Positions 236 through 20,030 of a DNA stretch of 64,000 bases are shown one piece after another. The notes beneath the pieces were generated by a model. The model worked only from the letters and a program-made list of their open reading frames with translations. It was not told where the DNA came from and searched no databases. Made by a program: the position numbers and the translations under genes. Location: assembly GCF_024223415.1 (NCBI RefSeq), contig NZ_CP100500.1; one strand, written 5' to 3'. Every line of letters begins with the position of its first letter. Within the stretch, counting starts at the first letter, position 1. Source of the DNA: Escherichia coli (GTDB lineage: Bacteria > Pseudomonadota > Gammaproteobacteria > Enterobacterales > Enterobacteriaceae).

Positions 236-451
236 ATGAATCCCCGATTAACGTTAACAGAACATCAGCGCCGTGCCGAAGCAGTGAACAATGTTCTGGA
301 AGATATTATCCGGTTACATCGCGGAGAACTGAGTGTCTGTCGTGCCACTGTTCATTTTCAGGAAATACAAAAGCAGTTTGATACTTCTGTTTTTGCAGAA
401 GGGATCACTTATGCCCTGGACCAGATAAGGTCAGAAAATCGCCCCGGATAA
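236..451 (+). CDS. hypothetical small protein (71 aa), prophage-associated
   Basis: ORF with AAGGAG Shine-Dalgarno just upstream of ATG; no recognisable motif; lies upstream of a phage-type Dam methylase. Confidence 0.4.
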   Translation: MNPRLTLTEHQRRAEAVNNVLEDIIRLHRGELSVCRATVHFQEIQKQFDTSVFAEGITYALDQIRSENRPG

Positions 452-643
452 TCCCTAAACCACATTAACAGAAATCACTTCATCCCTGCCGCATCATGAA
501 AGAACGACCAGCCCGGTGCTTCGGACCCACCAGGCTGGCCATCGTCCCACAGGAATGCGCTGTGAGCCGACCGGGGTTCAGTCAGTCTCGCGAGACCAGA
601 CTAGCCTGCCATATTTTTAATAATTGTAAAAGGCTTACAGATT

Positions 644-1408: not shown

Positions 1409-1526
1409 AAGCCATAACCGGAAAGTACAGTGCTTTCCGGTAAGCCCGCCGATTTCTGCCATGCTACTGACGGCGTTTTCTGAAAGCATCCAGATCAACC
1501 ACCTGTCCTTTCTGTCCAGGTCAGAA

Positions 1527-1865
1527 TCAGCCTGCGAGTTTGCCTGGTTTGGGTTGAATGAAGACTTTGCCGACCTCAAGAATTGCCCTCCGTTGTTCGG
1601 GGCTCATCTCGTCGAATGCATCCATTAACTCTTTCTTTTCTTGTGACATATAAGGTGCAACAACAGGCTGACTCCGCACCCCAGTAACTACATACAAAAC
1701 ATCTACACCGATTTCTGATAGTGCAGATAACTGCACTGCAGTAGGAGAAGTGCGATCTTTTTCCCAATCAATAAAAGTTCTCTTTGCCACACCGATAGCA
1801 TCAGCCAACCCTTGCTGTGTAAGAGATAGACGCTCTCTTTCTTCTTTAATACGTAACCCGATCAT
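1527..1865 (-). CDS. XRE-family helix-turn-helix repressor (prophage repressor candidate)
   Basis: track ORF 1527..2018 trimmed to internal Met (MIGLRIKEERERLSLTQQGLADAIGV...); classic HTH pattern; divergent from the Ner-like gene. Confidence 0.65.
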   Translation of the reverse strand: MIGLRIKEERERLSLTQQGLADAIGVAKRTFIDWEKDRTSPTAVQLSALSEIGVDVLYVVTGVRSQPVVAPYMSQEKKELMDAFDEMSPEQRRAILEVGKVFIQPKPGKLAG

Positions 1866-1889
1866 GTGAGTTTTTCTGCACTCTTTAAG

Positions 1890-1918
1890 TTGACTGGTGA
1901 GATAATCTGCACCATAAT
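1890..1918 (+). promoter_or_regulatory. candidate sigma70 promoter for the Ner-like/early operon (TTGACT - 17 bp - CATAAT)
   Basis: -35 TTGACT and -10 CATAAT separated by 17 bp, about 45 bp upstream of the 1966 start codon; sequence-only prediction. Confidence 0.3.
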
Positions 1919-1965
1919 CTATCACACATAAGGCAAACATCATTGCATCAACAAAGGAGACAACG

Positions 1966-2154
1966 ATGACTGCAGAACAAGTCAAAGCTCTCTTCCGCCA
2001 GCGCGGGATCACTTTCACCCGCTGGGCAGAAGAAAACGGCTACAACCGCAATGAGGTATACCGCGTTCTCAATGGGCAGAGCAAAGCACGTTACGGTAAA
2101 TCCCATGAAATCGCCGTGAAACTGGGGCTGAAATCAACAGCTCAGGCAGCCTGA
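1966..2154 (+). CDS. ner: Ner-like (Ner/Nlp family) small DNA-binding protein
   Basis: 62 aa; length and HTH layout resemble phage Mu Ner (GITFTRWAEENGY...GKSHEIAVKLGL); divergent from repressor, upstream of transposase. Confidence 0.6.
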   Translation: MTAEQVKALFRQRGITFTRWAEENGYNRNEVYRVLNGQSKARYGKSHEIAVKLGLKSTAQAA

Positions 2155-2200
2155 ATATTTTGATTCTTTGTAAAAGGTTATCACATATCGCAAAAGAGGT

Positions 2201-2515
2201 ATGCAGATGAGTAAGACGAATGTTTCAAGCTCCGGCAGTCGCATCCTCCGGGTACTCAAAGCGCTGCGCGGTCATGCCCTGAACGGTATTTCCAATGGTG
2301 AACTGGCGGCAGCACTGCACGAGTCACCGGCAAACATCAACCGGGCACTCAACACCCTCATTGAAGAAGGACTGGCCCTGAAACTGGAAAACGGGCGTTT
2401 CGCACCGGGCATCCAGTTGCTGCAGATCGCCATGGCCCACAGTAACGAGATGGCACGTGCACAGGATCGCATTAACGAAATCAACCAACGTGTCATTTCA
2501 GGTAGTCGTTTGTAA
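2201..2515 (+). CDS. winged-helix (IclR N-terminal-like) DNA-binding protein, function unknown
   Basis: 104 aa; SRILRVLKAL...ISNGELAAAL...INRALNTLIEEGL pattern typical of a winged HTH. Confidence 0.45.
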   Translation: MQMSKTNVSSSGSRILRVLKALRGHALNGISNGELAAALHESPANINRALNTLIEEGLALKLENGRFAPGIQLLQIAMAHSNEMARAQDRINEINQRVISGSRL

Positions 2516-2525
2516 GGAGTAATCA

Positions 2526-3443
2526 ATGGGACGCACCAAATCACCGGTTAACACTGAACTGAACGCCGAGGTACCGCTGTCGGATGATCTCAACGTCAGC
2601 CTGAATGCCATGACACAGCATCGCATGGAGATCATGCAGCAGTTTGGTGATGGACTGCCTTATGAACGTGATCGCATCGTTCACGAAGCACGTTTTTATA
2701 TGGCGCAGAGTGCTGAATCTATGCTGGAAGCGGGTAAACGGCTGATCATCTTAAAAGAAAATGAGCCACACGGGGACTTTGTTGGAATTGTAGAAGAACA
2801 ACTTGGTTTGCACGTGCGCGCAGCACAACGAATGATGAAAGCATCTTTGAAATACCTTTCACCAAAACTAGAGCCAAAAGCGACAACGTTGTCGCTTTTG
2901 GGTAAGGCAAAATTATTTGAACTTGTTGCTGAAGACGATGAAGACCTTGCCGAACTGGCCGACGGCGGCACAGTTGCCGGCCTGACGCTTGATGATGTTG
3001 ATCGCATGTCAGTACGTGAACTTCGCCAGGCCCTGCGTGAAGCGCGCGAAACTAACGCAGCTCAGCAACAGGTGCTTGCCGGAAAGGACGAAAAAATCAA
3101 CGAACTGGCCACAAAACTGGAGAAGAAATCCCGTATTCAACCGCCTGAGCCTGATGAAGAGGTGAAGAAGCTGCGGGCGGAAGTGACCGCATTAGCGGTT
3201 GAGGCGGAATCTGCCATCGCCGTCCGGCTCTCCGGTGCCTTTGAAACCCTGTGTGAATACTGCAGTAAAAACATGATTGATACCCCCAGAGATTTCATGG
3301 CCGGTCTGGTCTGCCAGATTGAACGCAGTGTTCATGCATTGCGTGAGACGTTCGACCTTGATGCCGCACCATCGGGTAACGATGCCCCCGCCTGGCTGAC
3401 CGAACCGGAGCCTGAAATCAACCGACCGGAGGGCATGCAGTAA
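2526..3443 (+). CDS. hypothetical protein (305 aa), acidic and coiled-coil rich
   Basis: good RBS (AAGGAG) upstream; no catalytic motif recognised; sits between Ner-like gene and transposase. Confidence 0.45.
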   Translation: MGRTKSPVNTELNAEVPLSDDLNVSLNAMTQHRMEIMQQFGDGLPYERDRIVHEARFYMAQSAESMLEAGKRLIILKENEPHGDFVGIVEEQLGLHVRAAQRMMKASLKYLSPKLEPKATTLSLLGKAKLFELVAEDDEDLAELADGGTVAGLTLDDVDRMSVRELRQALREARETNAAQQQVLAGKDEKINELATKLEKKSRIQPPEPDEEVKKLRAEVTALAVEAESAIAVRLSGAFETLCEYCSKNMIDTPRDFMAGLVCQIERSVHALRETFDLDAAPSGNDAPAWLTEPEPEINRPEGMQ

Positions 3444-3760
3444 TGAACACGGATAACACACAAAATATCCTGATGGACAGCCCGGAAGCACTGGGGCACG
3501 CACTGTGTAATCTGCTGCCGGAGATGGTGCAGGGTTTCCGCGTGGTGACACCTTCCGGTGAAATCTGCGTACCCGCACAGGAGGCGCATCCGTTTGTACT
3601 GACGATGGAAGTGATGCTGATGCAGCAGATAAGACGTCTGCAGCATCAGTCAGCATTGCGCCCGGCAGTTGCGCCGCAACCGGTAAATAACGTGGTGAAA
3701 ACCTGCGATGGCGAAACACTGTACGACCTCGCCAGAAAAATTGCCGCCAGAATCGGATAA
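3443..3760 (+). CDS. hypothetical protein (105 aa)
   Basis: start overlaps upstream stop (ATGA-type coupling); no motif recognised. Confidence 0.35.
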   Translation: MNTDNTQNILMDSPEALGHALCNLLPEMVQGFRVVTPSGEICVPAQEAHPFVLTMEVMLMQQIRRLQHQSALRPAVAPQPVNNVVKTCDGETLYDLARKIAARIG

Positions 3761-3775
3761 CAGGGAAGACAAGCT

Positions 3776-5545
3776 ATGACCCCGGCACTGACTGAAAAAC
3801 TTGTTGAAACAGCCCGCGCGGCACGTAATGCAGGGCATGGTAAACGCGGTGCAATATACGACGCTGCCTGTGCTGAACTTGGCATGTCCCGCGCCACTCT
3901 GCTGCGCAGGCTGAAGGAGGTCTCTGTGACTGATAAACGCAAAAAACGCGCCGATGCCGGACGCAGCACCCTGACCCGCGACGAAGCCGCGCTGATATCT
4001 GCCACACTACGTGAGGCCACCCGCAAGAACGGTAAGCGTCTCTATTCCATCGCGGATGCAGTGGAAACCCTGCGGGCTAACGGCTTTATCTCCGCAGGCA
4101 GAACAGATGAAACCACCGGTGAGTTTTTCCCGTTGTCCGAAGATGCCATCAGTCGTGCCCTGCGTAACTATGGCCTGCACCCGGAACAACTGGATGCCCC
4201 TGCACCGCATACCGAAGTGGCCAGTCTGCACCCCAATCATGTCTGGCAGATTGACGCCTCACTCTGCACGCTTTACTACCTGAGCAATGGACATAAAGGG
4301 CTGCAGGTGATGGACAGCGCGAAATTCTACAAGAACAAGCCCGCTAACCTTGCCCGTATCGCCAGTGACCGCGTGTGGAGTTACGAGATTACCGACCATG
4401 CCAGCGGCTGGATTTACGTTGAGTATGTGACGGGTGCGGAATCCGGTGAGAACCTGTGTTCTGTGCTTATCAACGCCATGCAGGAGCGTGGCGGCGCAGA
4501 CGTGCTGCACGGCGTGCCAAAAATACTCTATCTCGACCCCGGCTCGGCAAACACCGCGGGTATGACGAAAAACATGTGCCGCTCACTGGGCATCGACCTG
4601 ATAGCGCACAAGCCGCATAACGCCCGCGCCACCGGACAGGTGGAAAAGGCGCGTGACATTATCGAACGCAAGCTGGAGCCGGGTCTGAAGTTCCGGCCGG
4701 TTCACAGTCTGGAAGAACTCAACGCGCTGGCCGCGAAATGGCGCAGCCACTTTAACGCCACGGCTGTTCACAGCCGCCACGGTAAAACCCGCACGGATAT
4801 CTGGCTGAAGATTACTGCTGAGCAGCTGAAAAAAGCGCCTTCCGTTGAGGTATGTCGTGAACTGGCTGTGGCGGCACCAGAACTCCGCAAAGTCACGCCA
4901 AAACTTCGTGTCTCGTTCCGGGGCACTGAATTTGACGTATCAACGGTACCGGGCGTACTGGTCGGTGAAAAACTGATGATTACCCGTAACCCGTGGCGCA
5001 GCGATGTGGCACAGGTGGTTCTGACCGGTGAGGACGGCCACGAGACGTTCTTCCTGGTCGAAGAGGTCAGAAAGAACGAGTTTGGCTTTGCTGAAGGCGC
5101 GGCGGTATTTGGCGAAAGTTACAAAGCCCTGCCGGAAACCCCGGCGCAGATGGCGGCAAAAGAAACCGAAGCGCTGGTCACCGGTACAGACAACGCCGCA
5201 GATGCAGCTGCCGCACGCAAGGCGAAGGCGCTGCCGTTCGGCGGGCGGCTTGACCCGTATAAACATATTGATGACGCCACACTTCCGGCCTGTATACCGA
5301 AGCGTGGTCAGGCCTCTGACGTACGCGGACCGCGCACTGAACAGCGTCCCATGACTCATGTGGAGGCCGCGAAAGCCCTGCGCGGGAAGTTTAGCGCAAA
5401 CGGCCTGACCTGGACGCCGGAACATTACCGCCAGTTAACGGCACAGTACCCGGACGGCGTACCGGAAGCCGCACTGGATGAAGTCATGGCCACGCTGACC
5501 ACGCCGGCCCGCAGCAGCGTTATCAGCATTGTTAACGGCAACTGA
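3776..5545 (+). CDS. Mu-like DDE transposase (MuA-type, integrase catalytic core)
   Basis: 589 aa; N-terminal HTH region, central rve-like core (HVWQIDAS...), immediately followed by an AAA+ B-like gene as in transposable phages. Confidence 0.85.
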   Translation: MTPALTEKLVETARAARNAGHGKRGAIYDAACAELGMSRATLLRRLKEVSVTDKRKKRADAGRSTLTRDEAALISATLREATRKNGKRLYSIADAVETLRANGFISAGRTDETTGEFFPLSEDAISRALRNYGLHPEQLDAPAPHTEVASLHPNHVWQIDASLCTLYYLSNGHKGLQVMDSAKFYKNKPANLARIASDRVWSYEITDHASGWIYVEYVTGAESGENLCSVLINAMQERGGADVLHGVPKILYLDPGSANTAGMTKNMCRSLGIDLIAHKPHNARATGQVEKARDIIERKLEPGLKFRPVHSLEELNALAAKWRSHFNATAVHSRHGKTRTDIWLKITAEQLKKAPSVEVCRELAVAAPELRKVTPKLRVSFRGTEFDVSTVPGVLVGEKLMITRNPWRSDVAQVVLTGEDGHETFFLVEEVRKNEFGFAEGAAVFGESYKALPETPAQMAAKETEALVTGTDNAADAAAARKAKALPFGGRLDPYKHIDDATLPACIPKRGQASDVRGPRTEQRPMTHVEAAKALRGKFSANGLTWTPEHYRQLTAQYPDGVPEAALDEVMATLTTPARSSVISIVNGN

Positions 5546-5555
5546 GGAGGGAAAC

Positions 5556-6722
5556 ATGCTGGTACTGAAGCAGCAACTGAAAGAGGCCCGTATTCCACAG
5601 GCGGTGGCGGCGAGAGCTGTCGATGTTTCTGAGGCCACGCTGGCCCAGATTGTGAATCATAACGCGTGGCCCCGCACCAGCCCCGGAGAAGTGCGCCGGC
5701 GTCTTGCGTCCTGGCTGGAAAGTCAGGGGATTGATACAACGAAGAGTTTTGATGCTGTACAGGGCGCGGCCACGCCCCGTACAGCGAGTACCACAGATAA
5801 AACGAGCCTCAGTGAGGAAGAGAATATGTTACTCAAAAAACAGGTGTTATTTCCAGCAACCAAAAAAGCGTTTGGTCTTTTCCGTGACCCGTTCGCCGAC
5901 GAAGCCATGCAGGGTTCTGATGATGTGTTCACCACCCCGGACATTCGCTACGTGCGTGAGGCGCTGTACCAGACAGCCCGTCATGGTGGGTTTATGGCCG
6001 TCATCGGTGAGTCCGGTGCGGGTAAATCCACGCTGCGCCGCGACCTGACTGAACGTATTAACCGCGAGAATGCGCCGGTAATTGTTATCGAGCCATACAT
6101 CATTGCCATGGAAGACAACGATGTGAAAGGGAAAACCCTGAAGGCTGCAGCGATTGCCGAAGCCATTATCAGTACCATCGCACCACTGGAAAGCATCAGA
6201 CGCAGTCAGGACGCCCGCTTTCGCCAGTTGCATCGCGTCCTGAAAGGCAGCAGCCAGGCGGGGTTCAGCCACGTTCTGGTGATTGAGGAGGCCCACAGTC
6301 TGCCCATTCCGACACTGAAACACCTCAAACGCTTTTTTGAGCTGGAGTCCGGTTTCAAAAAACTGCTGTCCATCGTGCTGATTGGCCAGCCGGAACTGGC
6401 GACAAAACTGTCTGAACGCAATATGGAAGTCCGTGAAGTCGTTCAGCGCTGTGAGGTGGTCGAACTTCTGCCTCTGGACAATAACCTTGAAGAATTTCTG
6501 ACGTTCAAACTGCAACGGGCCGGTAAACAACTGACGGACATTATGGACGCCAGCGCAGTGGATGCCATACGTGCCCGCCTGAGCAATCCGGGAAGTCATC
6601 GTAAAAATATGGTCAGCCTGCTGTATCCGCTGGCCGTCAGTAACCTGGTAATAGCCGCCATGAATCTGGCCGCTGAAATCGGGGTTCCACAGGTCAACGC
6701 TGACGTTGTCAAAGGAGTTTAA
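5556..6722 (+). CDS. MuB-like AAA+ ATPase (transposition target-DNA activator)
   Basis: Walker A GESGAGKST, Walker B-like VLVIEEAH, N-terminal HTH; start set at ATG 5556 with GAGGAGG RBS (track ORF begins 5529). Confidence 0.8.
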   Translation: MLVLKQQLKEARIPQAVAARAVDVSEATLAQIVNHNAWPRTSPGEVRRRLASWLESQGIDTTKSFDAVQGAATPRTASTTDKTSLSEEENMLLKKQVLFPATKKAFGLFRDPFADEAMQGSDDVFTTPDIRYVREALYQTARHGGFMAVIGESGAGKSTLRRDLTERINRENAPVIVIEPYIIAMEDNDVKGKTLKAAAIAEAIISTIAPLESIRRSQDARFRQLHRVLKGSSQAGFSHVLVIEEAHSLPIPTLKHLKRFFELESGFKKLLSIVLIGQPELATKLSERNMEVREVVQRCEVVELLPLDNNLEEFLTFKLQRAGKQLTDIMDASAVDAIRARLSNPGSHRKNMVSLLYPLAVSNLVIAAMNLAAEIGVPQVNADVVKGV

Positions 6723-6724
6723 TA

Positions 6725-6994
6725 ATGAAATCCACCACAGGTATCAACCAGCAAATCAGCAAAGTGCAGTCAGCCATTATGGCGCTTAAGGCGACGAACA
6801 CGGATGTACAAAGCATCACCATCAGGGGTAACAAACCTGTCATCCGCGTTTCCCGGAGTGCGCATTGCATGCGCATGCTTGAGCAGGGAAAGGCCTGTTA
6901 TCTGTATACCGGACATGACCACAGGGGATATTTCCGTCAGGGCGTTTTCGAACTGCACGGCTGTCGCGTCGTGTGGCCGGAATCTTTGTGGTAA
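6725..6994 (+). CDS. hypothetical early-region protein (89 aa)
   Basis: AAGGAG RBS; no motif recognised. Confidence 0.45.
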   Translation: MKSTTGINQQISKVQSAIMALKATNTDVQSITIRGNKPVIRVSRSAHCMRMLEQGKACYLYTGHDHRGYFRQGVFELHGCRVVWPESLW

Positions 6995-7021
6995 TCAGCA
7001 CAACCGGAGAAATCATAAAAT

Positions 7022-7552
7022 ATGGCAAAAAGTACAAAAGGGGCAAAACGTATCAAGGCCGCAGCGGCACTCTGGGTACCAGGGACACGCGAAGAGGTCA
7101 TTGAGGGAATCAGACTACTCGGTGACGCACAACGTGAACTGGTCAGGGCTGAAACAGAAATGAATGACGCCATTGGCGATATCACCGCACGTTATGCCCC
7201 GCTCACCGAGAGCCTGAAAAAACGCATGGCCGAACTGCAGTCCGGTATTCAGACATGGTGTGAGGCACACCGTGATGAACTGACCGGCAACGGGAAGGTG
7301 AAGTTCGCTAACCTCACCACCGGCGAGGTGCAGTGGCGAAACCGTCCGCCATCAGTCAGTATCCGTGGGGCGGATAATGTTATTGAATTACTGAGACGTC
7401 TGGGGCTTGAGCGCTTTATTCGTGTAAAAGAGGAAATAAATAAAGACGCTATCCTGAATGAAAAAGAGGCCGTGAAAAATATTCCCGGTATTTCCATTAA
7501 AAGCGACATTGAGGATTTTTCAATAATTCCTTTTGAGCAGGATGTGCAGTAA
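7022..7552 (+). CDS. gam: Gam-like host-nuclease inhibitor (Mu Gam family, DNA-end binding)
   Basis: 176 aa; closely resembles phage Mu Gam along its whole length as recalled (N-terminal KRIK..AAA, central ETEMND, C-terminal EDFSIIPFEQ). Confidence 0.85.
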   Translation: MAKSTKGAKRIKAAAALWVPGTREEVIEGIRLLGDAQRELVRAETEMNDAIGDITARYAPLTESLKKRMAELQSGIQTWCEAHRDELTGNGKVKFANLTTGEVQWRNRPPSVSIRGADNVIELLRRLGLERFIRVKEEINKDAILNEKEAVKNIPGISIKSDIEDFSIIPFEQDVQ

Positions 7553-7649
7553 ACACACCACGTTAATTATTTAATAAAAACATTTTCTTTTTTATTCCGG
7601 CGTCAGCGCCGCGGGCTTCTGCACGCCGGAAACAGAGGAGAATTAAATC

Positions 7650-7844
7650 ATGATATTTAAATGTATTCAGTGCGAGAGGGATATAACAGCCCTGCGTTTT
7701 CACAGCGCCATCGCCGTGATGTCCGGTAAATACCACATCCCTGCGGTACGCGTCACCCTGGTCTGTCCGTACTGCAGCCAGCATTTTTCGGCAGACGTGC
7801 CCGTCATGGAATTCTCCCGCCCTGACAGGGAGGACGCGCAATGA
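7650..7844 (+). CDS. small zinc-ribbon protein (two CxxC pairs)
   Basis: CIQC ... CPYC; GAGGAG RBS. Confidence 0.45.
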   Translation: MIFKCIQCERDITALRFHSAIAVMSGKYHIPAVRVTLVCPYCSQHFSADVPVMEFSRPDREDAQ

Positions 7845-8113
7845 TTACCCCACAGGAAGCACGACAGCGCACCCGAACCCTTGTTGAACACTATGTCAAC
7901 GAGTGTGAATGTCGCGACCTCACCGATGTGAAGCACGTCCTGACGGCGCTAATCAGCATGGCCACACAGGCCATTGTGGCAACCAACGGAAAGGCGGCTG
8001 CCCTGCAGGTACTGATGAACACACTCACCCACACGGCAGAGCATGAGGTGCCGTACCGGATGGAAACCACTGCAGAAGGCGGCCTGCACATCACCGTCAG
8101 CCGGAAGCACTGA
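7841..8113 (+). CDS. hypothetical protein (90 aa)
   Basis: start overlaps upstream stop (ATGA); no motif recognised. Confidence 0.4.
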   Translation: MITPQEARQRTRTLVEHYVNECECRDLTDVKHVLTALISMATQAIVATNGKAAALQVLMNTLTHTAEHEVPYRMETTAEGGLHITVSRKH

Positions 8114-8122
8114 GGGTGCGGC

Positions 8123-8419
8123 ATGACACGAAACACCGAACTCACCCGCACCGCCCTCTACCGTCTGGCCCTGCAGCGTTTCGGGCCGGATGCACAGGCC
8201 CTGAAACTGACAGAAGAGGCCGCTGAACTGGCGGCCAGTGCTGCCCGCAACCTGAACGGACAGGGCAGCGAAAGTGACCTCGCGGCAGAGCTGGCAGACG
8301 TGGAAATCATGACAGAGCAACTGCGCCTTCAGGGGATGGACCGGCTGATTGACTTCCACAAACAGAAAAAACTGGAACGTCTGGCTGCACGACTGGGCGT
8401 GATTTACACGAACGAGTAA
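8123..8419 (+). CDS. MazG-like nucleotide pyrophosphohydrolase candidate (all-alpha NTP-PPase fold)
   Basis: 98 aa; EExxE ... ExxD acidic motif pair (EEAAELAAS ... AAELADVEIMTEQL) at MazG-like spacing. Confidence 0.5.
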   Translation: MTRNTELTRTALYRLALQRFGPDAQALKLTEEAAELAASAARNLNGQGSESDLAAELADVEIMTEQLRLQGMDRLIDFHKQKKLERLAARLGVIYTNE

Positions 8420-8433
8420 CCGGGAGGCATTCA

Positions 8434-8556
8434 ATGGCTGACATACTCAGGGAAATCACCGCATGGACACTGATTCTTACTGGTCTGGCGACATGCCTCA
8501 GTGCGGGAGCAGCCCTGGCTGCCCTGCTGATGCACATAACAACACAGTGGTTATGA
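8434..8556 (+). CDS. small hydrophobic peptide (40 aa, one predicted TM helix)
   Basis: not in supplied track (<60 aa); GGGAGG RBS about 7 nt upstream of ATG; hand-counted coordinates. Confidence 0.3.
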   Translation: MADILREITAWTLILTGLATCLSAGAALAALLMHITTQWL

Positions 8557-8645
8557 GAAAAGCTTAAAGCAGCATACAGCCTGAAAGAGCTGTCCGACGC
8601 TGTCCGGGCATGGAAACGGCAGAAAAATACCGGAGATACAGAACA

Positions 8646-9329
8646 ATGACAGACCAGAATAAACACATTGAGAAACTGAAAAAGTTGCTGGCGCTGGCCG
8701 CATCCGGCAACCCGCATGAGGCTGCTCTGGCACTGCGCCGCGCCCGTAAACTGATGGATGTTCACGGCATCACACATTCCGACATCGCCATGAGTGATAT
8801 TGATGAAACCATCAGTCACTACTGGCCGACAGGCAGCCTCCGTCCGCCGCGCTACATGCCAGGGCTGATGAACATCATCCGCGAGGCATTTGGTGTTAAC
8901 TCCATCATTCACCCCGGCACATATCCGGGTGTGGGGTTCTACGGCAAACGGGAACGGGCCGCACTGGCCGCGTACACCTGGGAAGTGCTGGCCCGTCAGC
9001 TGAAAAAGGCGCGTCAGCAGTATATCAGTGCACAGAACAAAAGAATAAAAACCGCCACCCGCACCAGCCGTGGAGACCAGTTTGCTGAAGGCTGGGTGCT
9101 GGCCGTTATCAGTGAAATACAGTCCTTCGCCCTGACCAATGACGAACGTGAACTGATGCAGCAGTGGCTGGAACATAAATACCCGCAGACGCAAACCACC
9201 AGGGCGCGTAAACCGGGAAGAAGTCGCAATGGCGACGCCTCGCGCTATGCGGGGTTTCGAGAAGGGCAGAACGTCAGACTGCACCGACCGGTCAGTGGGC
9301 GGGAACAGCAGAAACTGGAGGCCAGATGA
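8646..9329 (+). CDS. DUF2786-like phage protein
   Basis: track ORF 8610..9329 trimmed to Met with GGAGA RBS; N-terminal KLLALAASGNPHEAALALRRARKLM motif typical of this family. Confidence 0.5.
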   Translation: MTDQNKHIEKLKKLLALAASGNPHEAALALRRARKLMDVHGITHSDIAMSDIDETISHYWPTGSLRPPRYMPGLMNIIREAFGVNSIIHPGTYPGVGFYGKRERAALAAYTWEVLARQLKKARQQYISAQNKRIKTATRTSRGDQFAEGWVLAVISEIQSFALTNDERELMQQWLEHKYPQTQTTRARKPGRSRNGDASRYAGFREGQNVRLHRPVSGREQQKLEAR

Positions 9330-9556
9330 TGACGTTATCAGGTAACAGCCGGAAATTAAAAGCCTGCCGAATATCTGCCAGATACCTTTTTGCCCGCGCC
9401 TTTTTTAAGAACGTCAGGCCGGGGATCACAATTGGTGTTATTGCCGGACGCGAACAGGTTGAAAAATACATGTCAGGTGCATGGTGGAATAAAGACCCTG
9501 TCATTGCTGCCCGTAATATTCATATCAGTTGGGGAGATATTCAGAATGACTGCTGA
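9326..9556 (+). CDS. hypothetical protein (76 aa)
   Basis: GGAGG RBS; overlaps neighbours head-to-tail. Confidence 0.35.
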   Translation: MMTLSGNSRKLKACRISARYLFARAFFKNVRPGITIGVIAGREQVEKYMSGAWWNKDPVIAARNIHISWGDIQNDC

Positions 9557-9761
9557 ATCTGTTGTATGTGCCCTGTTCTGGTATTGTTTTGTCGGTTGGT
9601 GTACTGCTGAACTGCACCGCCGTTCAGGGTTTTATTCACGTTACAGTGGTGCCGGTTACTGGATTAGCTGGTCGGTGATGTTCCTGTGCTGGCCTGTGGC
9701 ATTTCCTTTATATGTCGATTATATCGGTGATGCAGGCAGAAGGAGCAACGATGATGACTAA
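9546..9761 (+). CDS. small Trp/Cys-rich membrane protein (71 aa)
   Basis: track ORF 9390..9761 trimmed to ATG 9546; hydrophobic. Confidence 0.35.
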   Translation: MTAESVVCALFWYCFVGWCTAELHRRSGFYSRYSGAGYWISWSVMFLCWPVAFPLYVDYIGDAGRRSNDDD

Positions 9762-10203
9762 ACAACGTCTTATCCAGCTTATCCATATTGCCCGTAATGA
9801 ACTGGGTATGGATGAAGACACCTACCGCCAGATGTTACAGGGGCTGACCGGTAAAGCCTCAACCAAAGGAATGGATACCACACAACTAAACTGCGTGCTG
9901 GAATCCATGAAAAGGAAAGGCTTTCGCGTTAAGCCTGCCGGAAAAGCCAGCTCCGGTTTACCGCTGGATAACCATCCGCAGTCCAGGAAAATCCGTGCGC
10001 TATGGCTTGAAATGGCTGCTGCCGGCATTGTTCGTGACCGTTCAGAAAATGCATTAGCGCGGTGGATCAAGCGGGAAACGGGCATCAGCGCCCTGCGCTG
10101 GCTCAATACTGAACAGGCAAGCAGTGTTATTGAGAAACTGAAGAAGTGGCAGCACAGAGCTGCGGGAGTAAAACATGAGCGACCTGAATCAGTTTCGAAG
10201 TAA
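9751..10203 (+). CDS. gemA: GemA-like protein (Mu GemA family)
   Basis: N-terminal KQRLIQLIHIARNELGMDEDTYRQML pattern; positioned directly upstream of mor as in Mu. Confidence 0.75.
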   Translation: MMTKQRLIQLIHIARNELGMDEDTYRQMLQGLTGKASTKGMDTTQLNCVLESMKRKGFRVKPAGKASSGLPLDNHPQSRKIRALWLEMAAAGIVRDRSENALARWIKRETGISALRWLNTEQASSVIEKLKKWQHRAAGVKHERPESVSK

Positions 10204-10573
10204 AGGGCCGGAACTCCTGGTGGAGCTGGCACAGCATACCTCTGAGACCGTTCGCGAGATTATTGATATTGAGCCCGCAATTGCCGACCAGATTGGTCAG
10301 GCCGTCGCGAACCGAATGATGCAGGTCTGGGGCGGGCAAAACGTTTATTTCCCGATGGGCATGGTATGGAAGGTCAGTCAGCGCGACCGGGAAATCTTCA
10401 GGGAGTTTAACGGACGCAACCACCACGAACTGGCCCGCAAGTTTGGTGTTTCGCTTCAGTGGGTCTACAGCGTGGTTAAGCGGGTCAGAAAAGAAGAACT
10501 GGATCGGATGCAGGGCAGGTTGTTTGATGAAGATCTGCCAGAGGAGACGAAAGACGTTAACAAATCCAGATAA
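10175..10573 (+). CDS. mor: Mor-family transcriptional activator (Mu middle operon regulator)
   Basis: 132 aa; C-terminal HTH REIFREFNGRNHHELARKFGVSLQWVYSVVKR typical of Mor/C family. Confidence 0.85.
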   Translation: MSDLNQFRSKGPELLVELAQHTSETVREIIDIEPAIADQIGQAVANRMMQVWGGQNVYFPMGMVWKVSQRDREIFREFNGRNHHELARKFGVSLQWVYSVVKRVRKEELDRMQGRLFDEDLPEETKDVNKSR

Positions 10574-10618
10574 TTCCTGCTTGTTAAAGTCCTTTCAAAA
10601 ATCTCCTTATTGTATAAA

Positions 10619-10649
10619 AGCACGGTAGACCCCGTACCGTGCTTTTTTT
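10619..10649 (+). terminator. rho-independent terminator downstream of mor
   Basis: GC-rich hairpin AGCACGGTA...TACCGTGCT followed by a run of 7 T. Confidence 0.5.
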
Positions 10650-10687
10650 ATGCTCTCTCTTTAGTATTCAGGATGCAGGGAGAAAAT

Positions 10688-11320
10688 ATGTTTGACGTTT
10701 CGTTGTTAAATCTGCCATGGGCAACACTGGTGACCCTGACCAGTGGCTATATTGGGTATTTTATTGCGAATGTGGGACTGAAGGATCACCACAAGCCCAT
10801 TGAGGTGACTTTTTCTTCGCTGATTTTTGGCCTGACAGCAATGATGGCTTACCAGGCTGTTATGTGGGCAGGTCTGAATGCCTGGCTGGCAACACCACCA
10901 GCACTTCTGTGTGCCGTTACATGCGGTGCGTGGTGGCGCAGGTACGGTCGCAAATGGATGTACAGATTACTGTGGAATAATGATATTTCATGGTCTGACG
11001 ATACCAGCTCAGCATGGCAGGCAATGTTTGATCAAACAGGCTTCAGCGTTACCGAGGTCAGAGTGATTCTTCGCGATGGTTCCGGTATGATGTCACGGCT
11101 GCCAGGGAACTTTGAACAGTGGCCTAACGGTCCGTTTACCCTGGGGAATAAAGGCGATATGGTTCTTTACGTCACGCACAGCAGCCCTTCAGGCAGTAAC
11201 GAATGGGAAGAGTATAAAGGCGTGGTTGATAAGTACTGGGGAGCTCTGGCAACCTATATTCCAGCAGATCAGATTGCCAGAGTGGAGATCAGGCGCGTTC
11301 GTGCAACGAACGATGAATGA
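10688..11320 (+). CDS. membrane protein (210 aa), N-terminal TM helices plus soluble C-terminal domain
   Basis: track ORF 10610..11320 trimmed to ATG 10688 (GGGAGAA RBS) because the upstream part overlaps the mor terminator. Confidence 0.5.
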   Translation: MFDVSLLNLPWATLVTLTSGYIGYFIANVGLKDHHKPIEVTFSSLIFGLTAMMAYQAVMWAGLNAWLATPPALLCAVTCGAWWRRYGRKWMYRLLWNNDISWSDDTSSAWQAMFDQTGFSVTEVRVILRDGSGMMSRLPGNFEQWPNGPFTLGNKGDMVLYVTHSSPSGSNEWEEYKGVVDKYWGALATYIPADQIARVEIRRVRATNDE

Positions 11321-11670
11321 TGTTTATTTTTTCCCTGGGGCAGGGGCTGCCGGCATAGTGGTTTTATTGGCAGAGGAAGACGATTCTCCTTTTCTACCGG
11401 AATCGCGCTCGAACGTCACGATGTGCTTGCTTTTGGGATTTTCTGAGTAATCCAGGCTATCATGCTTATTGTTTTGAGTAGTCATTGGAATCATCCTTTT
11501 TGTTGCGGGTCATGTTTCAGCAAACTCGATTCTAAGTTGCCAGGAAGGATGATTTCAATGCCCGACTTATCTATCGTATAGCGGAAAAGAATTTCAGTTC
11601 TGTTCACCAGAACCCATGTTAACCCACTCCAATTCGTTATTTATCTCACGGATCCCCCTTCATTTATCTC

Positions 11671-12012
11671 ATGTCTGATCAGGTGCGTAAGCTCTCTGGC
11701 GGCAACCAGCAGAAAGTTATCCTCGCGCGCTGCATGGCGCTCAATCCACGGGTGTTGATTGTCGATGAGCCGACGCGTGGCATCGACGTTGGAACCAAAT
11801 CGGAAGTGCACCAGGTGTTGTTTGATATGGCGAAAAAGGGCGTGGCGGTGATCGTGATCTCCTCCGATCTGCTTGAAGTGATGGCGGTGTCTGACCGGAT
11901 CATCACCCTTAGTGAAGGCCGGTTAACTGGCGAGATCCACGGTGACGACGCTAACGAAGAACGGCTGATGACGATGATGGCTATCAACCACAACGCCCTG
12001 AACGCGGCATAA
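11671..12012 (+). pseudogene. 5'-truncated sugar ABC transporter ATP-binding protein (C-terminal ~113 aa only)
   Basis: LSGGNQQK signature, Walker B LIVDEPTRGIDV; the N-terminal ~390 aa expected for a RbsA-like two-domain ATPase are missing. Confidence 0.8.
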
Positions 12013-12023
12013 CGGAGTTTCTC

Positions 12024-13052
12024 ATGACGCAGATGATTCCTAAAACGCAGGTCCCGGTAAAACGCGTCGGACGCATCGATCCCATTGCCTTCTTCGAGCG
12101 CTTCGGGGTACTGATTTTCATGATCCTGCTGCTGATCTTCTTTCAGTCGCAGAACAGTAATTTTTTCTCTGAACGCAATATTTTCAACATCCTGACCGAA
12201 GTCTCCATCTACGGGATCATGGCCGTGGGGATGACCTTCGTCATTCTGACCGCTGGGATCGACCTCTCCGTGGGCTCTATTCTGGCAGTGTGCGCCATGA
12301 CAGCGGCGTACGTGATCAAAGGCGACAATTTCACCACAGTCGATCCGAACGCTTGGGGCGGTATGAGCTGGCTGATTGGGCTGGGGATTTGTCTGACCAT
12401 GGGTACAGCGATTGGCTTCCTGCACGGTCTGGGCGTCACTCGCCTGCGCCTACCACCGTTCATCGTCACCCTTGGCGGGATGACCATCTGGCGTGGTCTG
12501 ACGCTCGTGATTAACGACGGTGCGCCGATTGCCGGCTTCGATCAGGGTTATCGCTGGTGGGGACGAGGGGAATTGCTCGGCATCTCCATTCCGATCTGGA
12601 TCTTCGCCATCGTTGCCATTGGTGGTTATCTGGCACTGCATAAAACCCGTTGGGGGCGCTTCGTCTATGCCATCGGTGGCAACCCGGAGGCGGCACGTCT
12701 GGCTGGGGTAAACGTGAAGCGTGTGCTGGTTAGCGTCTATGTGCTGATTGGCTGTCTGGCGGGGCTGGCGGGCTTCATCCTGAGCGCTCGTCTGGGGAGC
12801 GCTGAGGCGGTTGCCGGGATCTCCTTTGAGCTGCGTGTTATTGCCTCGGTGGTTATTGGCGGCACGTCGTTGATGGGGGGATATGGGCGCATCGGCGGCA
12901 CTATCATCGGCTCCATCATCATGGGCATTCTGATTAATGGCCTGGTACTGATGAACGTCTCGGCCTACTACCAGCAAATTATCACCGGATTAATTATCGT
13001 TCTGGCGGTGGCATTCGACACCTATGCCAAGAGCCGTCGCGGCGCACTGTGA
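12024..13052 (+). CDS. sugar ABC transporter permease (RbsC-like)
   Basis: 342 aa polytopic membrane protein downstream of the ATPase fragment. Confidence 0.8.
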   Translation: MTQMIPKTQVPVKRVGRIDPIAFFERFGVLIFMILLLIFFQSQNSNFFSERNIFNILTEVSIYGIMAVGMTFVILTAGIDLSVGSILAVCAMTAAYVIKGDNFTTVDPNAWGGMSWLIGLGICLTMGTAIGFLHGLGVTRLRLPPFIVTLGGMTIWRGLTLVINDGAPIAGFDQGYRWWGRGELLGISIPIWIFAIVAIGGYLALHKTRWGRFVYAIGGNPEAARLAGVNVKRVLVSVYVLIGCLAGLAGFILSARLGSAEAVAGISFELRVIASVVIGGTSLMGGYGRIGGTIIGSIIMGILINGLVLMNVSAYYQQIITGLIIVLAVAFDTYAKSRRGAL

Positions 13053-13060
13053 GGATCACG

Positions 13061-14194
13061 ATGAAAGAGGTTCGTATTGGATTGATTGGCACCGGGTATA
13101 TTGGCAAGGCGCATGCCATTGCCTATGCCCAGGCACCGACGGTGTTCAATCTGCGCGGCAAACTGGTGCGCGAGATGGTGGCTGAGGTGAACCCGGCGCT
13201 GGCGGCAGAACGCGCGCAGGCGTTTGGCTTCAATCGCTCAACCGGAGACTGGCGGGTGCTCGTGGCCGACCCGGCCATTGATGTGGTGGATATTTGCTCC
13301 CCTAACCATCTTCACAAAGAGATGGCGCTGGAGGCGATCCGCCACGGCAAGCACGTCTATTCGGAAAAGCCGCTGGCACTGAATGCCCACGACGCGCGTG
13401 AGATGGTCGACGCTGCGAAGCGGGCAGGGGTGAAAACGCTGGTGGGTTTCAATTACATGAAAAACCCGACGGCACAGTTGGCGAAAGAGATTATTGCGCG
13501 CGGCGAAATTGGTGAGGTGATCCACTTCTACGGAACCCACAACGAAGACTATATGGCCGACCCGCTTTCCCCTATTCACTGGCACTGTTTTAAAGAGACC
13601 GCCGGACTGGGGGCTCTGGGTGACTTGGCGGCACATATCGTCAATATGGCCCAGTATCTGGTGGGAGAGATTGAGCAGGTCTGTGGCGATCTGAAAATTG
13701 TGGTGCCGGCACGTCCGGCAAAGGCCGGATCGTCGGAAATGGTCACCGTGGAAAATGAAGATCAGGCCCACGCGATGGTGCGCTTTGCGGGCGGGGCGCA
13801 GGGCGTCATTGAAACTTCCCGCGTCGCCTGCGGCCGCAAGATGGGGCTGTCATATGTCATTACTGGTACCAAAGGAGCGATCAGTTTTACCCAAGAGCGG
13901 ATGGCAGAGATAAAGCTCTATCTACATGATGATCCGGTGAACCGTCAGGGGTTCCGGACACTGTTGGTCGGTCCGGCACACCCGGATTACGGCGCGTTTT
14001 GCATGGGCGCAGGTCATGGTATCGGCTTTAACGATCAAAAAACGGTGGAAGTGCGTGATCTGGTAGACGGCATTGCCACCGACGCACCGATGTGGCCGGA
14101 CTTCGAAGAGGGCTGGAAGGTCTCGCGCGTGCTGGATGCCATCGCACTCTCACACCAGCAGGGCCTCTGGCTGAACGTGAATGACATTGTCTGA
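13061..14194 (+). CDS. Gfo/Idh/MocA-family NAD(P)-dependent oxidoreductase (inositol 2-dehydrogenase-like)
   Basis: N-terminal Rossmann motif IGLIGTGYIGKAH; clustered with iol genes. Confidence 0.75.
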   Translation: MKEVRIGLIGTGYIGKAHAIAYAQAPTVFNLRGKLVREMVAEVNPALAAERAQAFGFNRSTGDWRVLVADPAIDVVDICSPNHLHKEMALEAIRHGKHVYSEKPLALNAHDAREMVDAAKRAGVKTLVGFNYMKNPTAQLAKEIIARGEIGEVIHFYGTHNEDYMADPLSPIHWHCFKETAGLGALGDLAAHIVNMAQYLVGEIEQVCGDLKIVVPARPAKAGSSEMVTVENEDQAHAMVRFAGGAQGVIETSRVACGRKMGLSYVITGTKGAISFTQERMAEIKLYLHDDPVNRQGFRTLLVGPAHPDYGAFCMGAGHGIGFNDQKTVEVRDLVDGIATDAPMWPDFEEGWKVSRVLDAIALSHQQGLWLNVNDIV

Positions 14195-14206
14195 AGAGGG
14201 TTCAAC

Positions 14207-17022: not shown

Positions 17023-17844
17023 ATGTCACGTCTGTTATCACGCTGGCAACAGCCGAACGCTGAGGGGCGGACTCAGTCTGTCACGCCGGAAAGCGCCGGA
17101 TGGGGATATGTTGGCTTTGAGGCCTATGAACTTGAGGAAGGGCAGCAACTGACGCTGCCCGCTGTCAGTGAAGAGCGCTGTCTGGTGCTGGTGGCCGGGC
17201 GCGCTTTCATCAGCACTCCTTCTGCACAGTTTATTGATATCGGGGAGCGGATGAGCCCGTTCGAGCGCATCAAACCTTGGGCGGTTTACGTCACCCCGCA
17301 GGAGGCAGTGCAGGTGAAGGCGCTGACGAAACTGGAGCTGGCAGTCTGTACCGCTCCGGGAAAAGGGACATACCCGACGCGGTTGATTGCACCTCAGGAT
17401 ATCGATGGCGAAGCGCGCGGTAACGGCCACAACCAGCGTTATGTGCATAATATTTTGCCGGAAGACAAGCCCGCTGACAGCCTGCTGGTCGTCGAGGTCT
17501 GGACCAACGAAGGCTGTACCAGTTCGTACCCGAGCCATAAACACGATACGAATAACCCGCCTCAGGAGAGCTATCTGGAGGAGACCTATTACCATCGCCT
17601 CAACCCGGAACAGGGGTTCTGCATGCAGCGGGTGTATACCGATGACCGCACACTTGATGAATGTATGGCGGTCTATAACCGTGACGTGGTCATGGTGCCG
17701 AAAGGGTACCACCCGGTGGCGACGATGGCCGGGTATGACAGTTATTACCTTAACGTGATGGCCGGACCAGTACGTAAATGGATATTCACCTGGGAAAAGG
17801 AACACTCATGGATAAACACAGAGTATTCTGCCATTTCTTTATAA
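17023..17844 (+). CDS. iolB: 5-deoxy-glucuronate isomerase-like protein
   Basis: 273 aa; family assigned from memory and from position after iolC/iolE. Confidence 0.6.
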   Translation: MSRLLSRWQQPNAEGRTQSVTPESAGWGYVGFEAYELEEGQQLTLPAVSEERCLVLVAGRAFISTPSAQFIDIGERMSPFERIKPWAVYVTPQEAVQVKALTKLELAVCTAPGKGTYPTRLIAPQDIDGEARGNGHNQRYVHNILPEDKPADSLLVVEVWTNEGCTSSYPSHKHDTNNPPQESYLEETYYHRLNPEQGFCMQRVYTDDRTLDECMAVYNRDVVMVPKGYHPVATMAGYDSYYLNVMAGPVRKWIFTWEKEHSWINTEYSAISL

Positions 17845-17866
17845 ACTGAGTACCTAAGCTAAAAAA

Positions 17867-17885
17867 GGGGAATGACTCCCCTTTT
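17867..17885 (+). terminator. rho-independent terminator after the iol genes
   Basis: GGGGA-loop-TCCCC hairpin flanked by A-run and T-run. Confidence 0.45.
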
Positions 17886-18588
17886 GTATAATATGACTCG
17901 ACAATGTTATTTCAAAGTCTGAGTGATGATTTTTCTCTCAGGCAGTATGTTCCTCAATAAGGATGAGAATGTATTCTGTTCATTGGCATATGCATTTATA
18001 TTCTAATGAGCTGAATTTTATAAAGGTTGTGGCTATTCTGGAGTATAAATATTTTTTTTCATTAGACATGAAAGTCTATATGATGGTGTATTAATATTTT
18101 TAGCAATTATGAACGGTTTGTCATGAACCAGTGACCAATTCGTTATGGTGGTGTGCGGTTATATGGTACCTGCTTATGGTGTTATGTTTTTGTCACGTTT
18201 TTGCTGGGGGGTAACATATGTATTGTTTATTTTATATGGTTTATTAAAAAGCTATGAACTCTTTTCAGAGTAATCTCTCACAGTTTTTTTTAATGTTTTA
18301 AAGTTGGTAGTGGTTTGTTATTTTATTTAACTATGTGTTCTTGAAAAAGAACAATGTTTTAAGTGTTGGTTTTTTATCCTTATGATTTTTTAAATGAACT
18401 ATTCAACAATTTACGCTGTGCTGTCCTACAGTTAAAGAGCGTTAATGTAATATCAAATGTAATTATTACGGACAGGCTGAAATCTGGTTGTGTACATCAG
18501 TTGGTGCAAAAAGGCTTATCAAAGTACTGAAATAATAGTAAGTACAATAATAATGATGAATATTGCTACATGGAGATTGGATTTGCCC

Positions 18589-19494
18589 CTATATTTCCAG
18601 ACACCTGTTATCACTTAACCCATTACTGGCTTGCTGCCGTAGATATTCCCGTGGCGAGCGATAACCCAGTGCACTATGCGGATGCCATTCGTTATAATGC
18701 TCGAACGCCTCTGCAAGGTTCTTTGCTGCCGTTAACCCGTCTGGTTTGGGCATGACACTGATGTAGTCACGCTTTATCGTTTTCACGAAGCTCTCTGCTA
18801 TGCCGTTACTCTCCGGACTCCGCACCGCCGTGCTCTTCGGTTCAAGCCCCAACATCCGGGCAAACTGCCGTGTTTCATTAGCCCGGTAGCATGAACCATT
18901 ATCCGTCAGCCACTCTACTGGAGACGCCGGAAGCTCGTTGCCGAAGCGGCGTTCCACCGCTCCTGGCATGACGTCCTGTACTGTTTCACTGTTGAAGCCG
19001 CCCGTAGTGACCGCCCAGTGCAGTGCCTCACGGTCACAGCAGTCCAGCGCGAACGTGACTCGCAGTTTTTCTCCGTTATCACAGCGGAACTCGAACCCGT
19101 CAGAGCACCATCGCTGATTACTTTCTTTCACAGCCACTCTGCCTGTATGTGCCCGTTTCGATGGCGGTACAGCAGGTTTTCGCTCAAGCAACAGCGCATT
19201 CTGGCGCATGATCCGGTAAACACGTTTGGCATTGATCGCAGGCATACCATCAAGTTCGGCCTGTCTGCGAAGCAGCGCCCATACCCGACGATAACCATAC
19301 GTGGGCAGCTCTCCGATAACATGGTGTATACGGAGAAGCACATCCGTATCATCAGTGTGACGACTGCGGCGGCCATCCATCCAGTCATCGGTTCGTCTGA
19401 GAATGACGTGCAACTGCGCACGCGACACCCGGAGACAACGGCTGACTAAGCTTACTCCCCATCCCCGGGCAATAAGGGCGCGTGCGCTATCCAC
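18589..19494 (-). CDS. insD: IS2 transposase ORFB (InsD)
   Basis: 301 aa DDE transposase, IS3 family. Confidence 0.9.
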
Positions 19495-19817
19495 TTTTTT
19501 GCCCGTCCATATTCAACGGCTTCTTTGAGGAGTTCATTTTCCATCGTTTTCTTGCCGAGCAGGCGCTGGAGTTCTTTAATCTGCTTCATGGCGGCAGCAA
19601 GTTCAGAGGCAGGAACAACCTGTTCTCCGGCGGCGACAGCAGTAAGACTTCCTTCCTGGTATTGCTTACGCCAGAGAAATAACTGGCTGGCTGCTACACC
19701 ATGTTGCCGGGCAACGAGGGAGACCGTCATCCCCGGTTCAAAGCTCTGCTGAACAATTGCGATCTTTTCCTGTGTGGTAAGCCGTCTGCGTTTCTCCGGT
19801 CCTAAGACATCAATCAT
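19452..19817 (-). CDS. insC: IS2 ORFA (InsC)
   Basis: track ORF trimmed to [12 protein letters not shown] start; 121 aa HTH protein. Confidence 0.85.
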
Positions 19818-20030
19818 CTGCTCTCCAATGACTAGTCTAAAAACTAGTATTAAGACTATCACTTAAATAAGTGATACTGGTTGTCTGGAGATTCAGGGGG
19901 CCAGTCTAGAGATATAAAGAGCGTCTAGCTCCGGATATATCTTTGACACTACGACAGTACTTGCAAAACGGGGTTGGTAATGCTGCCAACTTACTGATTT
20001 AGTGTATGATGGTGATTTTAAGGTGCTTGC

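Follow-up and report, generated by a model that had tools for sequence, protein, structure and literature searches.

Insertion of coliphage Mu produces 5-bp duplications; each end of Mu has three MuA sites, its early operon reads inward from the left end, and its MuA protein carries Mu-specific DNA-binding and C-terminal domains; Tn552 makes 6–7-bp duplications. BcepMu was described by Summer et al. (2004, J Mol Biol 340:49, as cited in PMC2628397 and PMC5977238), and according to the paper on phage KS10, TG…CA termini together with a Tn552-related rve transposase typify BcepMu-related elements (PMC2628397). Here we analyzed a 64,000-nucleotide stretch of an Escherichia coli genome (contig NZ_CP100500.1 of assembly GCF_024223415.1), referred to below as the window, in which phage-derived DNA meets a fragment of the gene for the ATP-binding protein of a sugar ATP-binding cassette (ABC) transporter, between positions 11681 and 11682. 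This junction is very probably the transposition end of a Mu-like (BcepMu-type) transposable prophage that inserted into the ATPase gene of a myo-inositol (iol) island and carries a cargo cassette next to its end. The element itself is ordinary, BcepMu-type transposable prophages being common in E. coli.

The phage-host junction

In a megablast search of 5426 complete E. coli genomes with positions 10600–12100, more than 100 genomes shared 10600–11681 with the window at 99.5–99.9% identity, and all of these matches stopped at query positions 1082–1086 (window 11681–11685), the flanking gene varying from genome to genome. At least 14 different host genes adjoin the phage end among the 30 best matches, and the genes found beyond it include yejF, sfaA, rfaH, phoX, ybhJ, tdh and malE, those for trehalose-6-phosphate synthase and GspL, and others. 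On the host side, 11683–14200 is 99.6–99.8% identical to 51 E. coli genomes carrying the iol island, in which the ATPase gene is intact and encodes 515 amino acids with both nucleotide-binding domains. The intact allele reads …ACGCAAGA GGTGCG TAAGCTC… (around the insertion point also read as …GCAAGA GGTGCG TAAGC…), GGTGCG being present once at that point, and the window junction reads …CATGTCTGATCA GGTGCG TAAGCTC…, the host sequence restarting exactly at GGTGCG. The last phage base is 11681, and host DNA starts at 11682, which is nucleotide 1218 of the ATPase gene, in codon 406 of the 515-amino acid protein. The first-pass annotation of this stretch, made from the sequence alone, had placed the right edge of the phage-derived DNA near 11.6 kb and proposed an alignment to intact ATPase genes and related prophages; that alignment gave the exact breakpoint, and the edge was upheld at ~11.68 kb, where identity to other prophages ends. 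The change in sequence character noted there is also borne out by base composition, the G+C content being 53% in the phage arm, 46.7% in 10574–11681 and 41.3% in the last 196 bp, versus 58.5% in the host iol genes.

What remains of the transporter gene in the window is its orphaned 3' part, codons 406–515 (11682–12012, plus strand), identified by identity to the intact alleles. The 5' 1217 nucleotides, and with them any ABC N terminus, are absent throughout the 64-kb window, as the first reading had found for the interval around the junction. The product of the frame 11671–12012 aligns only to positions ~400–505 of the 500–513-amino acid two-domain sugar ABC ATPases (NCBIfam XylG, AraG, and RbsA), covering the signature-to-C-terminus part of the second nucleotide-binding domain and lacking the two-domain architecture of the RbsA/XylG/AraG type; judged from its sequence, the window copy is a pseudogene fragment. 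The open reading frame (ORF) of 113 amino acids at 11671–12012 (plus strand) is chimeric, its ATG and the next 8 bases belonging to the phage and its other 331 bases, stop codon included, to the ABC gene. The ATPase-like frame that had been seen from about 11671 is therefore a true C-terminal ATPase match of which the first 11 bases are phage DNA, the host sequence beginning at 11682. The chimeric ORF is a by-product of the insertion, the ATG of the phage end being in frame by accident, and no Shine-Dalgarno sequence is visible upstream of it. The same insertion with an identical chimeric ORF occurs in two other public assemblies, GCA_900482235.1 and one Logan assembly. The fragment in the window reads SSDLLEVMAV where nine of nine intact alleles examined read SSDLPEVMAV, a nonsynonymous Pro-to-Leu change that is consistent with relaxed selection after the split.

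Farther into the host DNA, the sequence after the last iol gene is very AT-rich (29–33% G+C at ~17.8–18.6 kb), and the minus-strand ORFs 18589–19494 and 19452–19862 are IS3-family transposase genes in a matching contig; ~17800–19860 is probably the edge of the iol island.

Termini and target duplications in related prophages

Each of five complete prophages related to the window arm lies between two halves of a single host gene or the two sides of a single intergenic region (kbl-tdh), and all five are bounded by exact 6-bp direct repeats (AATAGG, GGATAT, GCGAGC, GAAAGC, and GAAGGT). Their ends read 5'-TGATG…TGATCA-3', that is, with 5'-TGAT…ATCA-3' inverted termini, and the 37,426-bp prophage of PK8275 has just four copies of the motif G[ACT]GATAAAT, two near each end (positions 12 and 35 counted from the terminus) and in inverted orientation. 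The same arrangement is found in the window, where an inner putative transposase-binding repeat (GAGATAAAT, reading inward from the end) lies at 11639–11647 (minus strand, position 35 from the terminus) and an outer one at 11662–11670 (minus strand, position 12), followed by the prophage terminus …TGATCA with its 3'-CA end at 11676–11681 (plus strand), which was placed by the break in identity among the more than 100 E. coli genomes. The host bases that follow, GGTGCG at 11682–11687 (plus strand, gene nucleotides 1218–1223), are the right-hand copy of a predicted 6-bp target-site duplication. The element is thus found at many unrelated sites with short target duplications, and its own insertion in the window shows the right-hand copy only. 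Window positions 1–11681 align with the prophages of PK8275 and F1022 as one ungapped segment of 99.2% identity that reaches their natural end, and no phage sequence has been lost at this edge.

It is because an unchanged end recurs beside many genes, with terminal inverted repeats and 6-bp duplications, and because GGTGCG is single in the intact alleles, that we read the junction as a transposition end. The first-pass annotation had instead taken it for a recombination or deletion junction leading into a truncated host gene, and a scar of this kind, by deletion or illegitimate recombination, would have fused a defective prophage remnant to a truncated ABC gene at the cost of the late genes and the ATPase gene's 5' part. 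The window indeed holds only the 3' 331 nucleotides of that gene, and no late genes follow mor, the last core gene of the arm; however, in these phages the early operon normally separates the late genes from this end, so that their absence after mor is expected; the terminus is the natural one, unchanged in more than 100 genomes and accompanied by inverted terminal repeats and 6-bp duplications; and complete prophages align to the window arm without gaps. A scar is therefore very improbable. The suggestion to look for terminal repeats or microhomology at the breakpoint led to the terminal inverted repeats and the target-site duplication of the complete copies rather than to a deletion scar, and the host gene, of which only a C-terminal fragment is present as had been recognized, is better described as interrupted by an insertion of ~36–37 kb than as deleted.

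It can practically be dismissed that a conventional temperate phage or island integrated site-specifically, using an attachment site within the ABC gene. Integrase-encoding phages do give prophage-host junctions inside genes, but this end carries a DDE transposase and a MuB-like partner and no tyrosine or serine integrase, and the related prophages occupy many unrelated sites with different 6-bp duplications; a small recombinase (573 bp) stands at the far end in some copies, and its position suggests a resemblance to a Gin-type invertase. Concerning that far end, which is outside the window, the related prophages fall into two late-end types (L002 versus L004–L007): in one type, the small recombinase stands beside divergent tail-fiber genes and the end reads TGATGCGCCGCGCGATAAATGCG…, and in the other, that of strain LR-31, there is no recombinase and the end reads TGATGCGGCGTGCGATAAATGCC….

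Several points weigh against reading the junction as a transposition end. The window does not reach the left junction of this insertion, which could not be recovered, and the binding of the transposase to the 9-bp repeats is putative. The duplication of GGTGCG and the completeness of this prophage copy are likewise predictions from its relatives. An exact-sequence look-up of two predicted ATPase-phage fusion proteins gave no match, a look-up of the neighboring substrate-binding protein returned intact loci only, and the GCA_900482235.1 contig with the same insertion was covered to 10 kb left of the junction.

In the mechanism that we propose for a transposition end, window positions 1–11681 are the early-gene arm of a BcepMu-type transposable myovirus prophage of ~36–37 kb, whose DDE/rve transposase and MuB-like AAA+ partner would bind the pair of 9-bp repeats found 12 and 35 bp in from each terminus (5'-TGAT…ATCA-3'). 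The transposase would cut at the 3'-CA and join the ends to the target with a 6-bp stagger, the target here being codon 406 of the iol-island sugar ABC transporter ATPase gene, so that GGTGCG (11682–11687) would be one copy of the target duplication, followed by the 110 C-terminal ATPase codons. Since the ABC gene was split by transposition, its 5' part is expected upstream of the window, past the other phage end, with ATPase nucleotides 1–1223 leading into a predicted left junction that reads …CACGCAAGAGGTGCG followed directly by TGATGCG…. The split inactivates the transporter gene.

A solitary copy of the phage end was also observed elsewhere. About 150 E. coli records contain a 144-bp segment matching window positions 11528–11672 at 89.7% identity, and those listed are mostly large plasmids (85–220 kb), several of them from poultry isolates. 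The plasmid copy keeps both terminal repeats and the hairpin that precedes them (see below) and lacks the last ~9 bp; in pST95-32-2 (NZ_CP043952.1; L008:5001–5144), the one plasmid examined, it lies unannotated between an IS3 remnant and a LysR gene. It is probably the fossil of an old insertion by a related phage.

Organization of the prophage arm

The genes of the arm were assigned from the ORF list, PHROG matches, and the RefSeq annotation of near-identical copies. The transposase is a 589-amino acid DDE (rve) protein (3776–5545, plus strand) with phage homologues and the rve domain as its only Pfam match, and it is followed by the gene for a MuB-like AAA+ transposition partner of the ExeA family (5529–6722, plus strand), assigned from the RefSeq annotation of 99%-identical prophages. 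The listed ORF of this partner has 397 amino acids and its RefSeq homologues are annotated at 388; the identical gene in contig L024 has AAA_22/AAA_16 Pfam matches, and gp08 of BcepMu occupies the same position. The other plus-strand genes are those for a DNA adenine methylase (644–1408), DUF3102 (2526–3443), Gam (7022–7552), DUF2786 (8610–9329), and GemA/gp16 (9712–10203), and a repressor-like helix-turn-helix gene reads leftward at 1527–2018. The last core gene before the phage end is mor, encoding a Mor-type late or middle transcription activator (10175–10573, plus strand; phrog_532, E 2.3e-45) and annotated as Mor family in the RefSeq copies. Behind it lies a strong intrinsic terminator (10616–10653, plus strand), in which a 12-bp stem with a 7-nucleotide loop (10616–10646) is followed by a T-run.

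In the five complete prophages and BcepMu, the early operon ends with gemA-mor and reads outward to one genome end, with the myovirus late genes on the opposite side. These late genes (holin, transglycosylase, terminase-like, portal, head, sheath, tube, tape measure, baseplate, and tail fibers) are thus across the early operon and in opposite orientation, which explains their absence after mor. In the interval from mor to the terminal repeats, the phage lineage of the window carries a 1.1-kb cargo cassette, which is dispensable for transposition.

The genes between mor and the phage end

The first gene of the cassette encodes a 210-amino acid inner-membrane protein (10688–11320, plus strand; phrog_12870, E 1.4e-133). 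The membrane protein proposed after the mor terminator is confirmed, since the ratio of nonsynonymous to synonymous substitution rates (dN/dS) of 0.13–0.18 against diverged homologues indicates purifying selection and hence a real gene. An in-frame ATG 15 nucleotides upstream (10673; MQGEN-MFDV…) would give a protein of 215 amino acids; the 210-amino acid start is preferred because homologues begin with MFD or MID and because GGGAGA precedes the ATG at 10688. The protein has three uncharged segments of 21–23 residues with K/R-rich loops at 32–37 and 84–99, a pattern that predicts an N-out, C-in topology. Its AlphaFold2 model (predicted local distance difference test score (pLDDT) 86) shows three helices followed by a beta-rich domain at 119–205, and the model suggests a protein made of three N-terminal transmembrane helices and a cytoplasmic beta-rich Sm-like domain. 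The family counts 521 representatives at 50% identity, nearly all of ~200–215 amino acids. Among close homologues, 12 of 35 match DUF6338 (PF19865) at E ≤ 1e-3, as do 3 of 50 distant homologues, and the window protein itself gives no match up to E ≤ 10, which would make it a divergent branch or a neighbor of DUF6338.

The second gene is convergent and encodes a hydrophilic, Pro/Ser-rich protein of 53 amino acids (11324–11485, minus strand; phrog_15726, E 8.6e-41). RefSeq annotates a 162-bp minus-strand coding sequence right after the 210-amino acid gene in identical prophages, and a ribosome-binding site (AGGA) precedes the ATG; an alternative start at 11494 would give 56 amino acids. Homologues of this small protein are unnamed hypothetical proteins only. 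The first-pass annotation had described ~350 bp without a convincing ORF at this point, and this holds for the plus strand, where no gene is present in the 361 bp after the 210-amino acid gene, but not for the minus strand, where the 53-amino acid gene is conserved. The remaining 196 bp (11486–11681) contain a promoter-like site, a hairpin, and the two terminal repeats. The site, a putative sigma70-like promoter (TTGAAA-18-TAGAAT; 11529–11558, minus strand) that matches the consensus at 10 of 12 positions, faces inward and is placed for the small gene, and the hairpin with its T-rich tail (11596–11614, minus strand) is a terminator-like match that may stop host transcription entering the prophage. 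An Rfam scan of 10400–11900 detected no RNA family.

Distribution and possible role of the cassette

The 210-amino acid gene is outside the phage core. In complete E. coli genomes, gemA-mor is present in 639 of 5426 (~12%) and the full end module in 117, the common E. coli variant ending ~165 bp after mor without the cassette and BcepMu likewise lacking it. In Enterobacterales (E. coli variants, Klebsiella, and Serratia), the gene always occupies the prophage end behind mor, and it directly follows mor in 32 of 38 IMG/VR loci, the transposases of which are 44–100% identical to that of the window. In contigs of non-Mu phages, it follows a head-morphogenesis gene in L071 and a major head/protease gene in L068, and in L066 it separates the head-tail adaptor gene from the head-closure gene; in Bradyrhizobium and Allosphingosinicella it is part of chromosomal islands. 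Where the sequence downstream is long enough (21 loci), a convergent small ORF of 33–57 amino acids accompanies it in 19, some of these in non-Mu phages and Alphaproteobacteria (among the counterparts are L018:6625–6798, L066, L067, L068, L070, and L071), its stop lying –22 to +57 nucleotides from that of the large gene. These small ORFs share a start with M and then T or S, a hydrophilic character, a (D/N/S)Y(S/T)…PK or SYxPxT motif, and a PPxPKKK-like tail. In this distribution, the two genes behave as a mobile moron cassette, for which no known family was found. Some variants (L011, L012–L013, and L022) hold an extra ORF of 80–95 amino acids between mor and the membrane-protein gene, and for this reason the region between mor and the phage end can be seen as a variable cargo slot.

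As to its function, we tentatively suggest that the cassette is a previously undescribed two-gene unit moving among unrelated prophages, in which a membrane-disrupting effector of abortive infection or superinfection exclusion would be restrained by the small protein or its antisense transcript; this is a possibility and no better than that. The picture of a membrane effector and small regulator expressed in the lysogen against superinfecting phage, by exclusion or abortive infection, is offered with low confidence, and a role in defense or exclusion is a guess. Several results weigh against it. The 210-amino acid protein had no Pfam, NCBIfam, or PADLOC match, and beyond the weak DUF6338 similarity, no family was found at E ≤ 0.001 in more than 1 of the 85 members scanned. 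Searches of the PDB gave no significant match, with none below E 0.5 by profile and none below E 0.29 by Foldseek. No sigma70-like promoter for the gene was found at the scan threshold in 10574–10687, and read-through of the terminator, a Mor-dependent promoter, and a weak promoter are candidates for its transcription. Finally, when the two proteins were modeled by AlphaFold2 as a linker fusion with a paired 16-sequence alignment, the peptide had a pLDDT of 25–35 and there was no docking signal, a crude test that is uninformative rather than negative.

Two other roles have to be weighed on the same evidence. The membrane protein and the peptide might serve the phage cycle itself, in lysis timing, as a holin-like function, or in transposition or packaging at the end, rather than being cargo of benefit to the host; the pair is conserved directly after mor even where transposases are only 44–56% identical, and 1 of 50 distant relatives matches Phage_holin_9 (E 7.6e-4). 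However, BcepMu and the majority E. coli variant do without the pair, as reflected in the 639 genomes with gemA-mor versus 117 with the full module, it is also found among head/connector genes of unrelated phages and in the non-phage islands, and the phage already has a holin and transglycosylase cassette elsewhere, all of which makes this role improbable. An addiction module of the toxin-antitoxin kind is slightly less improbable but still unlikely: here, a membrane toxin and a small-protein or antisense antidote would stabilize the prophage without any anti-phage role, in keeping with the convergent arrangement, in which the 3' ends are 3 bp apart and the small gene has its own predicted promoter, and with the modeled small cytoplasmic beta domain, which recalls those of membrane-disrupting effectors. 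Against it, there is no similarity to known toxin-antitoxin families, the fusion model lacks a sign of interaction, and a transposable prophage does not excise and so has little need for addiction.

Implications for annotation

The main value of the analysis is a correct annotation of this locus, with a clean transposition end between 11681 and 11682 in place of a scar, and an apparent ABC ATPase gene that is the tail of a prophage-disrupted gene, the strain having probably lost the ABC importer of its iol island. In addition, about one complete E. coli genome in eight has a BcepMu-type prophage of this kind, whose ends are now defined at base level together with its 6-bp duplication and the candidate sites of the transposase, and such data help to delimit prophages that integrase-based tools tend to bound wrongly. 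The sole part with potential for discovery is the cargo cassette, a conserved, mobile, and uncharacterized gene pair of a kind that often proves to be a defense or exclusion system.

Relation to described phages and effectors

For the 210-amino acid protein, the nearest comparison is with the Cap15/S-2TMbeta effectors of CBASS (antiphage signaling systems based on cyclic oligonucleotides), reviewed in PMC10419184, which likewise have N-terminal transmembrane helices and a small C-terminal beta domain within ~200 amino acids. One full-length AFDB50 match is named "SMODS-associating 2TM beta-strand rich effector" (E 4e-16, template modeling score 0.76, 27% identity), and PADLOC gave a marginal match (E 0.012) in 1 of 10 relatives of the protein. 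Unlike Cap15, the window protein has three helices rather than two. The identity with Cap15/S-2TMbeta was not adopted, given that the protein itself has no PADLOC match, no family but the weak DUF6338 recurs among its relatives, no Cap15 chain was among the PDB matches listed, and the annotation of the complete prophages shows no CD-NTase gene, distant loci not having been screened.

Among phages, coliphage Mu resembles the present element in its random insertion, TG…CA ends, A/B-type proteins, homologues of Gam, GemA, and Mor, and the splitting of a host gene between the two ends. Unlike Mu, the prophage has a 6-bp duplication, two clear sites per end, an outward-reading early operon, and a transposase with rve only; membership in Mu proper (Muvirus) is not supported, given the duplication length, the lack of any Mu-specific Pfam domain, and the direction of the early operon. 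The duplications made by Tn552 would fit the 6 bp found here. Mu was not among the transposase tblastn matches listed (40 of 69, sampled evenly down the ranking), which were BcepMu- or B3-type or other non-Escherichia phages. A close relative is Escherichia phage PhiKM (PQ738613, Bcepmuvirus, partial genome), with a transposase 98.5% identical and gemA-mor 96.8% identical to those of the window, but in PhiKM and the majority E. coli variant (e.g. Ecol_AZ161) the sequence departs from that of the window immediately ahead of the mor stop, the 1.1-kb cassette is missing, and the end follows ~165 bp after mor.

The transposase is 68% identical to gp09 of BcepMu (over 98% of its length) and to its counterpart in phiE255, both Bcepmuvirus, and 56% identical to those of Pseudomonas phage B3 and relatives. 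Like BcepMu, the prophage has an rve/Tn552-type transposase whose ExeA-like AAA+ partner is encoded next to it, an early operon running from a ner-like gene through tnpA, B, gam, gemA, and mor outward to the genome end, myovirus late genes, and TG…CA termini, and the early end of BcepMu, which reads TGAAGAGAGGTGAGATATTTCC…GCGCGATATTTCC, has two 9-bp repeats (GAGATATTT and GCGATATTT) at positions 12 and 35. On the other hand, the host is E. coli, whereas BcepMu is a Burkholderia phage; in BcepMu mor (gene 01) is the last gene, 364 bp from the end, with no cassette behind it, and its repeat has GATATTT in place of the GATAAAT found here. Every defining feature compared, from the transposase to the termini with their repeats and the layout of the operon, agrees with BcepMu and places the prophage of the window among the BcepMu-like phages.

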